Positions 6,349 to 10,977 are shown, numbered from the stretch's first letter. The stretch is 64,000 nt of DNA from a virus (IMGVR_UViG_3300032288_001980:1-64000); one strand, 5' to 3'. Notes: generated by a model not told the origin, from the sequence alone. Numbers and translations: made by a program.

Positions 6349-7116
6349 ATGAAATTTCCAATTACACGCATCACACAGCTGAGAGAGATATTGAACAATC
6401 ATCCATTGTTGTCTGAAAAAATTATTAATAATCGTCAAGACCTTCAACATTTTATGGAATGCCATGTGTTTGCAGTTTTTGACTTTATGAGTTTGATCAA
6501 AACTCTACAACACCAAATTTGTCCCAGCTCTACAGTTTGGTTGCCTAGTCCTTTGCAACGCAAAGCCAGTCGATTCGTTAATGAAATTATTCTAGCCGAA
6601 GAAAGCGATACCAGTTTAGTAGATGGCGAGTACATTAGTCATTACGATTTATACATCCAGGCCATGAGAGAAGTCGGTGCTGACCCTGATGTTATTATTG
6701 GATTTGAAGAACTAGTTAGAGAGTTTGGCATCGAATGGAGTTTAGATAAAGGTGACATTCCTGAAAGTTGTTATAACTTTGTTCGCAGTACTTTTGATTT
6801 TATTAATACAGATAAACCACATGTAGTAGCGGCGGCCTTTTGTTTTGGTAGAGAAACGGTTATACCTGACATGTTCACTGGAATATTAGAGCACTTGGGT
6901 ATTACAGAGTCACAGGCGCCTGGATTCTTTTACTATCTGCGTAGACACATCGAAGTTGACGGTGGCGAACACGGCCCTGCTAGTATCAAACTAATAGAAA
7001 CCTTGTGTGATAATGATCCTATTAAACTACAAGAAGCTGAACAGGCAGCACTAGATGCTATACAAGCACGTATTCGTTTTTGGAACGAAGTACGCAATGA
7101 GATTATATACAGATGA
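6349..7116 (+). CDS. DUF3050 / heme-oxygenase-like diiron protein
   Basis: FMECHVFAVFDFMSL, NEIILAEESD, SHYDLY, GRETVIP, RHIEVDGGEHGP. Confidence 0.8.
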   Translation: MKFPITRITQLREILNNHPLLSEKIINNRQDLQHFMECHVFAVFDFMSLIKTLQHQICPSSTVWLPSPLQRKASRFVNEIILAEESDTSLVDGEYISHYDLYIQAMREVGADPDVIIGFEELVREFGIEWSLDKGDIPESCYNFVRSTFDFINTDKPHVVAAAFCFGRETVIPDMFTGILEHLGITESQAPGFFYYLRRHIEVDGGEHGPASIKLIETLCDNDPIKLQEAEQAALDAIQARIRFWNEVRNEIIYR

Positions 7117-7604
7117 AACCTAAATTTAAAAAACTATACATGGACTGGGCTACTCGTGTGGCCCAGTTAAGTTACGCAAAAAGATTACAAGTGGGTGCAG
7201 TTATTGTCAAAGACGATACTGTTATCAGTTATGGCTATAATGGTATGCCTGCGGGCTGGGATAACAACTGTGAACACGATGTAATAGTTGCCGAAATTGA
7301 TGGTGACCCAGGTAGGGTAATTAGAGAAAATAAAACTAGGCCGGAGGTTCTACATGCAGAATCAAATGCAATCGCAAAGCTCGCAAAATCTACTAATAGT
7401 GGCCTTGGTGCTGACTTGTTCATCACTCATAGCCCTTGTATGGAATGCGCTAAACTTATCTATCAGTCTGGCATTCGCCGCGTTTTTTATGCTGAGGATT
7501 ACAGAGATAATTCGGGTGTCAACTTCCTCAGACATTCAGGAGTCGCAGTGGAACAAATAGATGACAGTAGTCAAAGTATTTTGGACAACTCTAAATCCGT
7601 TTAA
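7113..7604 (+). CDS. dCMP deaminase
   Basis: HAESNAI and PCMECAK zinc motifs; GYNG. Confidence 0.93.
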   Translation: MKPKFKKLYMDWATRVAQLSYAKRLQVGAVIVKDDTVISYGYNGMPAGWDNNCEHDVIVAEIDGDPGRVIRENKTRPEVLHAESNAIAKLAKSTNSGLGADLFITHSPCMECAKLIYQSGIRRVFYAEDYRDNSGVNFLRHSGVAVEQIDDSSQSILDNSKSV

Positions 7605-7848: not shown

Positions 7849-8017
7849 AACTAAAAGATGGGTCGTCACTGTAGAAGAGGATCCCGAAACTGGTGATTTA
7901 ATTTTACCCTTTCCCGATGGTCTATTAGATTCTATGGGATGGAAAGAGGGCGATGTTATCAATTGGAAAGAAGAAAACGGCGCATGGATTCTGACTCGAA
8001 AATCAAACGACATGTAA
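7838..8017 (+). CDS. AbrB/MazE/SpoVT-like small DNA-binding protein
   Basis: GDLILPFPDGLLDSMGWKEGDVINW swapped-hairpin pattern. Confidence 0.65.
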   Translation: MENETKRWVVTVEEDPETGDLILPFPDGLLDSMGWKEGDVINWKEENGAWILTRKSNDM

Positions 8018-8574
8018 TGATCGACTTGGAAACATTGGGAGTAACACCCGATGCTGTTATCCTAACTCTGGGTGCAATTAAGTTTGACCCCTGGGATGAT
8101 TCAAGTACATTAAACAGTCAAGAAAATATTCAAATGGATTGTTTCTATCATAGAATCGATCCTGAGAGTTTTGGACCTGACGCTAGAATAGACAACGGCA
8201 CATTGGCTTGGTGGGCCAATCAAAATGACGACGTAAGGGCAGAAGCTTTTGCTGAAGATAATCGACATCCTATTAGGACTACATTAACAGATTTTTACAA
8301 ATGGTTAGGTAAATTTGACTGTGTGTGGAGCAACGGCGCCACATTTGATATTGTAATGTTAGAATGGGCTTATAGAGCTCAGGACAAAGGAATCCCATGG
8401 AAGTATTGGCAGGCTAGAGATACTAGAACAATTTTCGGATTGGTCAAAGATCACAAAGAATTTATGCCTGAATCTGCTTCTAGTATGAAACATCATGCAC
8501 TTTGGGATTGTTGGGTCCAGTTAGTAACTGTACAAAATATTATACGCAGTCTGAATATTCCTCGCCCGGAGTAA
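8017..8574 (+). CDS. DEDDh 3'-5' exonuclease (Rv2179c/exonuclease VIII-like)
   Basis: MIDLETLG, WSNGATFD, RDTRT, HHALWD; TAATG overlap gives start 8017. Confidence 0.85.
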   Translation: MIDLETLGVTPDAVILTLGAIKFDPWDDSSTLNSQENIQMDCFYHRIDPESFGPDARIDNGTLAWWANQNDDVRAEAFAEDNRHPIRTTLTDFYKWLGKFDCVWSNGATFDIVMLEWAYRAQDKGIPWKYWQARDTRTIFGLVKDHKEFMPESASSMKHHALWDCWVQLVTVQNIIRSLNIPRPE

Positions 8575-8581
8575 ATAGCAT

Positions 8582-8620
8582 AGAGGACTTTAGGCATTCA
8601 TCCCTCTTTAAAAATTCTGC
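8582..8620 (+). promoter_or_regulatory. preQ1-I-like riboswitch candidate in the queD 5' leader
   Basis: AGAGG/CCUCU 5-bp stem, loop ending CAUC, A-rich tail; directly after TAAATA (8572-8577) and before queD-yhhQ. Confidence 0.6.
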
Positions 8621-8653
8621 ATGTCATTGCTATTCAAGTAAGGAGAATAAACA

Positions 8654-9157
8654 ATGGCAAACCAACCTATAACATACAAGTATACCAGCACTAAAGAATA
8701 TGTAGACGCATTTCCCTGTGCTTATCGTCAGTGGCGAGCTGACAGTCACTGTAACTTAATTCACGGTTACAGTTTTTCAATGAAGTTCTACTTTGGTACT
8801 AATGATCTAGACGTTCGTAACTGGGCGGCTGACTATGGTGGCTTAAAAGAACTTAAAAAAATACTCGAAGATCAATTTGACCACACACTGATTGTGGCTC
8901 AAGATGATCCCGAACTAGAAACTTATAAACTGCTCCAAGAAAAGAAAATGGCCAAAATCGTTATTTTACCACGATTAGGCTGTGAGGGTTTGGCAGATCA
9001 GCTATATAAGTTTGTTAACGGAGTATACATACCTGATTACTGGGGTCCTAGTGAAGCCGAACGTCTATGGTGCTATCGCGTAGAAGTACGCGAGACACAG
9101 GCAAATATGGCTTTCCGTGAGGGGCATCGGGAGTGGGGTGAAGATTTGTTTAATTAA
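8654..9157 (+). CDS. queD: 6-carboxy-5,6,7,8-tetrahydropterin synthase (6-pyruvoyl-tetrahydropterin synthase family)
   Basis: HCNLIHGYSF, FDHT, CEGLA, VEVRET; strong AAGGAG SD. Confidence 0.88.
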   Translation: MANQPITYKYTSTKEYVDAFPCAYRQWRADSHCNLIHGYSFSMKFYFGTNDLDVRNWAADYGGLKELKKILEDQFDHTLIVAQDDPELETYKLLQEKKMAKIVILPRLGCEGLADQLYKFVNGVYIPDYWGPSEAERLWCYRVEVRETQANMAFREGHREWGEDLFN

Positions 9158-9169
9158 AAGGAGAACATT

Positions 9170-9793
9170 ATGTTAGACAAAATTTTGGCCGGCGTTGACC
9201 GGGCACTTGCTTACAAATTAATGTTAGCGCACATCGTTATTATTGCAATTAGCAATTATATCGTTCAATTCAAGTTTGATTTCTTTGGCAATCCTATTGC
9301 ATGGGCGGCGTTTACGTTTCCATTGGTAGTTGTATTAACTGACTTAACAGTTAGACTGTTAGGTAAAGAAACAGGTCGTGCAGTAATTACCTTAGCTTTT
9401 ATTCCTGCTATTCTAGTAAGTATGGCAGTAGTTAAGTTAGGCGGTGCACCTGACTCTGTGGCTTTCCGCATCGGACTAGGATCTGGTGTTGCTTATTTTA
9501 TTAGCAATTTGTTAGATGTGTACGTTTTCCAGTACTTTAGAGAAAAATACCAAACATGGTGGATCGCCCCTACATTGAGTGCAGTAGCCAGTACATTCAT
9601 TGACACTTATGTATTCTTCTTTACAGCGTTCTACAAAGGTGCTAACGAATTCATGGCCGCTAACTGGCACATTGTTGCTACTAACAACAGTATCAGCAAA
9701 ATCCTTGTAAGTCTGTTAGTAATTTTACCCGCTTATGGCGTGTTATTAAATTACCTACAACAACGATTAAGCAAACAAGAACCCTCTAACTAA
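9170..9793 (+). CDS. yhhQ: preQ0/preQ1 (7-deazaguanine) transporter, YhhQ/VUT family
   Basis: Six hydrophobic segments; HIVIIAISNYIVQ, WAAFTFP, TDLTVRLLG, LDVYVF, IDT match the YhhQ pattern. Confidence 0.88.
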   Translation: MLDKILAGVDRALAYKLMLAHIVIIAISNYIVQFKFDFFGNPIAWAAFTFPLVVVLTDLTVRLLGKETGRAVITLAFIPAILVSMAVVKLGGAPDSVAFRIGLGSGVAYFISNLLDVYVFQYFREKYQTWWIAPTLSAVASTFIDTYVFFFTAFYKGANEFMAANWHIVATNNSISKILVSLLVILPAYGVLLNYLQQRLSKQEPSN

Positions 9794-10977
9794 TGACTAA
9801 GCGAGTATTAGTGATCGGAGCAGGCATTACGGGTGTAATGTCTGCTTATTTTGCGGCAAAAAAAGGGTACGCAGTAACAGTTGTCGACCAAGAACGATAT
9901 GCTGGTATGCGTACTAGTTTTGCCAATGGCGGACAAATTAGTGTCAGTAACAGCGAAGTATGGACTACTCACAGCAATGTCCTAAAAGGCATTAAGTGGA
10001 TGTTCAAAAAAGATGCTCCATTACTGTTTAGACTATGGCGATTAGATTGGCCGATGTGGCGCTGGATTGCAAAATTTCTTTATTACACTTATACTGGTGC
10101 TTATCGAGCAAACACAGAACAAACAATTAAATTAGGTTTAGAATCTCGTAAATTGTATGATGTAATATGTGCAGAAGAAAAAATTAAGTTTGATAGAGAC
10201 AACTGCGGCATAGTACATTTTTATAAATCAGAAAATTATTGGCAATCTGCTGTATCTGCAACCGAGTTATACGCAGACAACGGTTTAGATCGAGTTGAGA
10301 TTCCCGTTGAACAAATGACTAAGTTAGATCCTAGCTTAAGAGACATTCAAGATTGTGTGGGTGCAACCTTTACGGCCAGTGATTGGACCGGTGACATACA
10401 TAAATTTTGCTATGAGTTAATGGATATACTGGAAAAGAAATATCAGGTTGTATTTCATAACACATGTAAAGTCAATTCATTAACTGCATATTCAACAGCA
10501 TTTGATGCTGTAATTGTTTCAGCAGGAGTAGGCAGTGAACAGTTGGCCAACAGCGTGGGTGATAGATTAGACGTTTACCCTGTAAAAGGATATAGCATTA
10601 CAATTAATAATGTAAAACCTCCGGCTGTAAGTTTATTAGATGATGAAGCTAAAATTGTTACTAGCAGTTTAGGTAATAGATTTAGAGTTGCCGGCACTGC
10701 CGAATTGGCCGGCGAAAACTATGATATTAGACGAGACAGAATCGAGCCTTTGTTAAATTGGGTTCATGAAAACTTTCCTAACATGAACACACACGACTAC
10801 AGTCAATGGGCTTGTCTAAGACCAATGACACCAAACATGATGCCCGTTGTTAAAAAGAGCACCAATAATCAAAAAGTATTTTATAATACTGGTCATGGTC
10901 ACTTGGGTTGGACTTTGGCACCTGTTACAGCCAAACAAGTAGTAGAACTAATAGACGCTGATAATGAAAATAGATAA
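9793..10977 (+). CDS. dadA: D-amino acid dehydrogenase (FAD)
   Basis: VIGAGITG, TSFANGGQIS, YPVKGYS, WACLRPMTP, NTGHGHLGWT. Confidence 0.88.
   Translation: MTKRVLVIGAGITGVMSAYFAAKKGYAVTVVDQERYAGMRTSFANGGQISVSNSEVWTTHSNVLKGIKWMFKKDAPLLFRLWRLDWPMWRWIAKFLYYTYTGAYRANTEQTIKLGLESRKLYDVICAEEKIKFDRDNCGIVHFYKSENYWQSAVSATELYADNGLDRVEIPVEQMTKLDPSLRDIQDCVGATFTASDWTGDIHKFCYELMDILEKKYQVVFHNTCKVNSLTAYSTAFDAVIVSAGVGSEQLANSVGDRLDVYPVKGYSITINNVKPPAVSLLDDEAKIVTSSLGNRFRVAGTAELAGENYDIRRDRIEPLLNWVHENFPNMNTHDYSQWACLRPMTPNMMPVVKKSTNNQKVFYNTGHGHLGWTLAPVTAKQVVELIDADNENR

Follow-up and report, generated by a model that had tools for sequence, protein, structure and literature searches.

A covarying pseudoknot in front of a QueD-like gene of uncultured jumbo phages, a riboswitch candidate with preQ1-I-like features

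Does the 80-base leader that precedes a QueD-like gene in an uncultured phage contain a riboswitch and, if so, of which kind and with which logic? The question is raised by a 64,000-nucleotide stretch of viral DNA, IMGVR_UViG_3300032288_001980:1-64000 (the window, meaning this whole stretch), in which the ATG of the QueD-like gene starts at 8654; all features described here lie on its + strand. A first, sequence-only reading had taken the leader for a preQ1-I-like riboswitch wired as an ON switch for queD-yhhQ. It pointed to a stem, called P1 below, formed by AGAGG (8582-8586) and CCUCU (8603-8607), to a 16-nt loop between the two strands that ends in C (8587-8602), to the tail UUAAAAAUUCUGC (8608-8620), and to the complementarity of CUCUUUA (8604-8610) to UAAGGAG (8639-8645) over seven positions, one of them a G.U. 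All of these features are present. Absent from that reading was a second helix, P2 (8593-8600/8618-8625). We propose, with a probability of roughly 60%, that a phage-specific riboswitch has its aptamer at leader positions 8582-8625 and would exert ON control over translation of the QueD-like gene. The evidence consists of two helices with covariation, a set of conserved unpaired bases, a strand shared between the aptamer and a helix occluding the start region, and the association with a QueD-like gene.

The leader taken alone (8575-8665, 91 nt) folds at -14.8 kcal/mol, which is not significant when compared with dinucleotide shuffles (z = -0.37). It is by comparison with relatives, not from the single sequence, that the motif clearly stands beyond chance. 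IMG/VR contains at least 584 relatives, and 80 loci were retrieved for comparison. A simple stem/tail rule detects the same element just 5' of the gene in 72 of 81 sequences (the 80 loci and the window). The element is also present at L040, where the outer P1 pair is mismatched, and at L006, where the copy is cut by the contig end; a covariance-model search found nothing in 7 of the remaining loci. Two alignments were built. The first holds 51 distinct leaders. The second holds 92 distinct sequences among the matches listed, which were collected from IMG/VR by a DNA pattern, not by protein homology, and were aligned to the model. In the IMG/VR pattern scan itself, 115 of 120 among the matches listed carry P1.

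The stem proved real. P1 is paired in 100% of the 51 sequences and in 98.9% of the 92, with compensatory changes at three to four of its five pairs; the exchanges seen in the first alignment are A-U/U-A, G-C/C-G and C-G/A-U/U-A. P2 joins GGCAU of the P1 loop (8593-8597) to AUGUC (8621-8625), which makes the leader an H-type pseudoknot. It continues beyond a conserved U8598.C8620 mismatch through C8599-G8619 and A8600-U8618, so that its 5' strand reads GGCAU, mismatched U8598, CA (8593-8600) and its 3' strand UG-C-AUGUC (8618-8625). Indeed, in three relatives a change of A8600 to G coincides exactly with a change of U8618 to C, converting the last P2 pair from A-U to G-C. This indicates that P2 extends past the mismatch and that the invariant UGC of the tail belongs to it. 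P2 is about 91% paired and has four to five covarying pairs (G-C/G.U/A-U, A-U/G-C/G.U/U-A/C-G and U-A/C-G in the first alignment).

The unpaired segments are conserved as well. L1 (ACUUUA, 8587-8592) varies between 5 and 12 nt among relatives and holds an invariant C8588 followed by U. L2 (UC, 8601-8602) ends with the invariant C8602, directly 5' of the P1 3' strand, and L3 (UUAAAAAUUC, 8608-8617) is an A-rich linker running across P1, in which A8610, A8614, U8616 and C8617 do not vary. These six unpaired positions, from C8588 to C8617, are among 13 invariant columns of the first alignment. For the structure as a whole, which has 12 pairs, 94.8% of the cells of that alignment are paired versus 85.5% in column shuffles, both sides change at 8 of the 12 pairs, and the covariation score is 0.276 versus 0.104 in the shuffled columns, a value reached by none of 500 shuffles. 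Covariation of the stem across phage queD leaders, by which the sequence-only reading was to be checked, is found. Sliding the partner strands by one to three columns leaves only 31-52% paired. The second alignment gives almost the same figures, 94.6% paired with 8 of 12 pairs covarying. One contig of the collection, L225, carries a weak, degenerate second copy (34.6 bits, mismatched P1, no evident P2) about 950 nt upstream of a strong one (64.6 bits; L225:6-54 and L225:1000-1049).

How the aptamer could reach the translation start was examined in 161 unique leaders, which fall into two designs. In 87 of them, the window included, the P2 3' strand contributes its last four bases, together with the three to four that follow, to a helix with the start-codon region. 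In the window, the minimum-free-energy structure pairs the anti-start strand UGUCAUUG (8622-8629) with CAAUGGCA (8652-8659), so that the ATG (8654-8656) is sequestered in the predicted ligand-free fold. The Shine-Dalgarno (SD) sequence AAGGAG (8640-8645) sits in the loop of this hairpin, its last G being paired within an inner helix. When the 87 leaders are anchored on the AUG, the anti-start helix comprises 7 bp that are 79-100% paired per position, with exchanges at three positions (C-G/U-A/A-U, U.G/C-G/U-A and A-U/G.U); when the register is shifted, 27-65% are paired. The remaining 74 leaders have a CCUAUG/CAUAGG hairpin instead, which begins with the last two P2 bases, covers the start of the SD and is 93-100% paired. 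The P2 3' strand thus shares two to four bases with the occluding helix in both designs. The start context is AUGGCA in 96 of the 161 leaders. In the folding ensemble, 156 of the 161 have at least 2 bp between the P2 3' strand and the SD/AUG region. With this strand blocked, the platform loses 4.8 kcal/mol of stability on average and 5.6 kcal/mol in the window, whose start-codon hairpin has -10.4 kcal/mol when the P2 strand is free and -4.8 when it is unavailable.

These features lead to the following model. Without ligand, the end of the P2 3' strand would be held in the hairpin 8622-8629/8652-8659, the start codon would be buried and translation would be off. A small molecule, once bound, would keep P2 formed and draw the shared strand away; the occluding hairpin would thereby be weakened and translation of the QueD-like protein turned on. 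P1 (about -3.9 kcal/mol) and P2 (about -3.5 kcal/mol) are weak relative to the start-codon hairpin, so that the default state should be OFF, and tertiary contacts together with the binding energy of the ligand would be needed for turning it ON. No terminator-like site is present. ON logic acting through the P2 3' strand is the reading best supported by the two platforms, and the direction of the switch is read from them. The ON logic of the sequence-only reading therefore stands, with the conserved P2 3' strand facing the start codon or SD in place of the proposed pairing between P1 and the SD. The joining of one aptamer to two platforms of the same logic is typical of riboswitches. More generally, the leader combines what is used to recognize a riboswitch, namely a conserved 5'-leader aptamer, a platform helix that is mutually exclusive with it and a link to genes of one pathway.

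Several points weigh against an ON riboswitch as just described. The rules used to collect sequences partly imposed the invariant GG and CC at the top of P1 and the C.GC of UCUGC. The anti-SD helix of the 74 leaders shows almost no covariation, and a simple folding model of this class has the AUG less accessible once the strand is blocked. In the window, a shifted 8-bp helix, UUGCUAUU/AAUGGCAA (-4.8 kcal/mol), may still cover the AUG when P2 forms; as this helix still touches the AUG, release in the window is predicted to be partial. Finally, if the ligand were the end product of the pathway, ON control of a biosynthetic gene would be out of the ordinary.

What relation does the leader bear to preQ1-I? 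The family model RF00522 gives no match at its gathering score (39 bits) over the whole window, nor does it give one at E<=10, either on 8500-8720 or on five further loci with the motif. Rfam 15 as a whole, preQ1-II (RF01054) and preQ1-III (RF02680) included, likewise gave nothing at the gathering thresholds across the window, and at E<=10 on the same segments its matches were microRNA and small RNA families at chance level, misplaced or on the opposite strand. The reverse test was made with a model of the phage motif (R1), run with all filters off against five genuine Bacillota preQ1-I riboswitches (15 kb), which score 42-53 bits with RF00522. R1 finds four of the five exactly in place, at weak scores of 5.6-13.4 bits. 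The match is limited to model positions 3-34, which cover P1, the CAUC before the P1 3' strand, CCNCU and WUANAAA; C8602 is aligned to the CAUC of the genuine riboswitches and the first 7 nt of L3 to their A-rich tail. Four such co-located matches in 15 kb cannot be chance, and the pocket-forming core is accordingly recognizable as preQ1-I-like. We conclude that the leader is a variant of the preQ1-I kind and not a catalogued preQ1-I member. The resemblance first claimed for it is upheld by P1, the C before the 3' strand, the A-rich tail and the reciprocal test, and does not extend to membership of RF00522.

The likeness to preQ1-I (RF00522; types I-III, such as those of Bacillus subtilis queC, Thermoanaerobacter tengcongensis and Escherichia coli yhhQ) can be put as follows. 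Both are small H-type pseudoknots, with a 5-bp P1 of the form AGNGG/CCNCU topped by two G-C pairs, a conserved C directly 5' of the P1 3' strand (C8602, a putative ligand contact), an A-rich L3 (WUANAAA), and a link to queuosine-precursor genes (the QueD family and sometimes yhhQ). In preQ1-I, a highly conserved specificity cytidine lies at the end of L2, beside the P1 3' strand (PMC10622847). What is built differently is L1, P2 and the 3' part of L3. The phage aptamer measures 44-52 nt versus about 34. The preQ1-I L1 has 1-3 nt, with a conserved uridine right after P1 that reads the ligand edge (PMC10622847), whereas the phage L1 has 5-12 nt and begins N-C-U, the first base being A, C or U and the second the invariant C. 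The phage P2 has 7 bp with the conserved U.C mismatch. In preQ1-I the A-rich L3 leads straight into the P2 3' strand; in the phage leaders WUANAAA aligns with the preQ1-I tail, and the outer P2 strand is reached only after an invariant YUC-UGC stretch, made up of a conserved YUC and the UG-C of the extended P2. Translational preQ1-I riboswitches hide the first SD bases inside P2 and follow OFF logic (PMC10622847); in the phage leaders the SD lies 15-35 nt 3' of P2, not inside it, and the logic would be ON. The phage motif is, moreover, known only from uncultured phages.

Other known systems share single aspects of this arrangement. In the add adenine riboswitch of Vibrio vulnificus, the ligand-bound aptamer likewise captures a strand that otherwise helps to bury the ribosome-binding site or start codon, but its fold is unrelated (a purine-class three-way junction) and it is bacterial, not from a phage. 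At its 5' end the gene 32 mRNA of phage T4 has an H-type pseudoknot too, which serves translational autoregulation by gp32. Compared by description, not by sequence, it resembles the present motif in its position on a phage mRNA and in controlling translation, and differs from it in serving a protein, in having no comparable set of invariant loop bases and in preceding another gene. A further parallel is offered by riboswitches with altered specificity, among them the guanine-class variants for xanthine, 2'-deoxyguanosine and 8-oxoguanine (PMC9295807, PMC10556655) and the guanidine-IV variant (PMC9788692). They too combine a recognizable core with altered pocket or peripheral positions and with genes that do not fit the usual logic of the parent ligand. 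Unlike the phage motif, they still score with the model of the parent family.

The regulated gene was assessed at 121 distinct loci that have at least 2.5 kb of sequence downstream of the motif. A QueD-like gene follows in all 121, yhhQ in 7 and a DadA-like gene in 10, so that the QueD-like gene is the sole constant neighbour. It is this gene, and not a queD-yhhQ unit as first supposed, that appears to be the regulated one. Other neighbours vary and include glycosyltransferase-like, KdsA/DAHP-synthase-like, methyltransferase, epimerase, B12-radical-SAM, UvdE and cupin genes. At one locus (L080:2488-3495) the motif is followed by a canonical PTPS/QueD (141 aa, HGH intact) and then at once by the QueD-like paralogue (171 aa), and at one further locus by a 306-aa PTPS-related protein.

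In the window, the gene (8654-9157) encodes a phage-type QueD/PTPS-like protein of 167 aa with HGY instead of HGH. It matches PF01242 (1e-13) and phrog_2389, 'QueD-like' (3e-35), and scores 31.9 bits, below the 89-bit NCBIfam cut-off for QueD; a PDB sequence search returned only weak QueD matches. The catalytic Cys and the Asp-His are kept, while Tyr or Phe replaces two of the three zinc-binding histidines (AYRQW...HCNLIHGYS). Two cultured phages, Dinoroseobacter phage R5C and Acidovorax phage ACP17, have QueD-like proteins with the same signature, encoded in 7-deazaguanine gene clusters next to FolE, QueC, QueE, QueF or TGT genes. The positions concerned are window 8654-9157, L085:6007-6450 and L086:5001-5477. 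The enzyme may be a QueD of a phage type whose metal chemistry differs. Downstream in this lineage follow a YhhQ-type 7-deazaguanine precursor transporter (9170-9793) and a DadA-like FAD oxidoreductase (9793-10977).

The pathway to which the enzyme belongs can be approached through five near-complete jumbo relatives (L258, L325, L251, L024 and L292; 303-382 kb, 86-100% complete). All five encode FolE, in two of them within a few kb of the motif. None of the five contains TGT or DpdA, and matches to the QueC family are weak and partial only. The same holds for the record from which the window is taken, a 183.9-kb virus contig about 52% complete that contains exactly one copy of the motif: it encodes FolE (83578-84114), lacks TGT and has a weak QueC-like fragment. 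FolE without TGT/DpdA or a clear QueC makes 7-deazaguanine DNA modification unlikely in this phage group. The regulated enzyme would act on the FolE product. As to the ligand, both the conserved C and the genes around the motif suggest a molecule that offers a guanine-like face. Such a C, invariant and placed at the specificity position, matches any 2-amino-4-oxo face, be it that of preQ0, preQ1 or guanine or, equally, of a pterin. Plausible candidates are a 7-deazaguanine (preQ0, preQ1) or a pterin intermediate derived from the product of the phage FolE.

Two versions of a preQ1-I-like switch can be distinguished by their ligand. The first, which we hold to be somewhat less likely than not, is that the motif represents a new riboswitch class restricted to uncultured jumbo phages, which has kept the preQ1-I pocket scaffold for a different ligand, such as dihydroneopterin triphosphate or another pterin or 7-deazapurine intermediate, and would act as an ON switch for the QueD-like enzyme. 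What the phage reads would in that case be a precursor pool, the host's or its own, rather than an end product. The other version, which we find rather doubtful, sees in the leader a divergent but true preQ1-I member ('type IV') that binds preQ1 or preQ0, only the platform being inverted. The shared P1 sequence, the CAUC-CCNCU junction with its specificity C, the WUANAAA tail and the correct placement of four of the five genuine riboswitches by R1 agree with it, as does the regulation of a QueD-family gene with yhhQ next to it in some lineages. Against it stand the silence of RF00522 even at E<=10, the long L1 with its N-C-U start in place of 1-3 nt starting with U, the 7-bp P2 with its U.C mismatch, and the six conserved bases between the A-tract and the outer P2 strand. 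Moreover, positive feedback by an end product makes little regulatory sense, and the five near-complete relatives are without DpdA/TGT and a clear QueC.

Explanations that dispense with the ligand, or with P2 as the switching strand, fare less well. Translation could be set by a protein of the phage or host that recognizes the pseudoknot, as gp32 does in T4; the QueD-like protein itself is one possibility. Such an operator would look like what is seen, an H-type pseudoknot opening a phage mRNA shortly before the translation start, but it would leave unexplained why so many invariant unpaired bases coincide with the preQ1-I ligand-pocket region and why one aptamer is combined with two interchangeable platforms, which is riboswitch-typical; nor does any conserved partner gene besides the QueD-like one travel with the motif. 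We regard a protein operator as improbable, and the same low likelihood is given to a ligand-independent element, be it a thermosensor, a 5' stabilizer that protects from RNases or a device whose constitutive folding tunes how the QueD-like gene is translated. With P1 and P2 so much weaker than the -10.4 kcal/mol hairpin, temperature or co-transcriptional kinetics could set the balance between the two folds. However, a thermometer or stabilizer has no need of a covarying pseudoknot and 13 invariant loop positions, and a metabolite signal is suggested by the association with a single enzyme family in otherwise dissimilar neighbourhoods. The original switch proposal, in which the P1 3' strand CUCUUUA (8604-8610) pairs with the SD segment UAAGGAG (8639-8645) when unfolded and the ligand frees the SD, is very improbable. 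Its seven-position complementarity exists in the window, and runs of up to 7 occur in other leaders of the AGAGG type, but the pairing can form only where P1 is AGAGG/CCUCU and is unconserved: the longest run averages 4.9 (maximum 7) in the AGAGG type and 2.3-4.1 in the other four types, AGCGG, AGUGG, ACCGG and UGCGG, which make up 129 of the 161 leaders. The minimum-free-energy fold does not use it, and CCUCU resembles an anti-SD merely because it is rich in pyrimidines.

A phage riboswitch candidate raises the question of where else the motif occurs. A nucleotide search of cultured phage genomes gave no match, and a protein search of cultured phages gave QueD-like homologues at <=52% identity. 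In R5C and ACP17, the two records examined, the QueD-like gene abuts the upstream gene and there is no leader. Of 120 among the matches listed in bacterial and archaeal genomes, 5 are real and 115 are without the motif (113 have no P1, and 2 lack L1 and P2). The five real matches all come from short contigs (4-8 kb) placed in metagenome bins, and mis-binning of phage fragments is the probable explanation. The bins concerned (contigs L117, L154, L184, L202 and L217) bear the names Bacteroidetes (two contigs of one bin), Crocinitomicaceae, Chitinophagales and Nitrospira, and this bias towards Bacteroidota could be a weak hint at the host. Literature searches found no publication that describes the motif.

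To our knowledge, nearly every validated riboswitch class is bacterial, and very few have been found in viruses alone; preQ1-I is, as far as we know, the smallest natural aptamer scaffold. If the proposal holds, this scaffold can be rebuilt with a longer second helix and joined to two different ON platforms. The identity of the ligand would reveal what abundant lake phages use the pterin/7-deazaguanine pathway for. An RNA of about 45 nt with hundreds of natural variants is amenable to in-line probing, isothermal titration calorimetry and reporter assays.

The position of the element on its transcript is suggested by the sequence upstream. TAAATA (8572-8577), a late-promoter-like -10, lies 4 nt 5' of P1 and overlaps the TAA stop codon of the open reading frame (ORF) directly upstream (7939-8574), which encodes an Rv2179c-like exonuclease. 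A sigma-70 scan of the window gave no + strand site at the leader. Among 162 distinct relatives, 128 have a late-like TA[AT][AG]TA or a sigma-70-like -10 within 25 nt upstream of P1, most often at 7-8 nt and in most of them at 4-9 nt. Because a -10-like element lies just upstream in most relatives, the pseudoknot would open the transcript, with these elements acting as promoters. The promoter types of the relatives differ: most are late-like TAAATA or TAAGTA, as at 8572-8577 of the window, and others are near-consensus TTGAC-N17-TATAAT (as in L049, L057 and L061). Expression timing may accordingly differ between lineages.

The surroundings of the locus are those of a phage, with tail-fibre and other phage proteins encoded in the window. 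Upstream of the exonuclease gene lies a gene for a DUF3050/haem-oxygenase-like protein (6349-7116), which is translationally coupled to one for a protein of the dCMP-deaminase family (7113-7604). The 183.9-kb record also has 11 ORFs with radical-SAM matches, at about 63.5-72 kb and 108-116 kb (loci L090-L097). Eight of the 11 score above the Pfam cut-off, and seven form one run at about 63.6-71.8 kb, just beyond the end of the window. This is an unusually large radical-SAM set for a phage.

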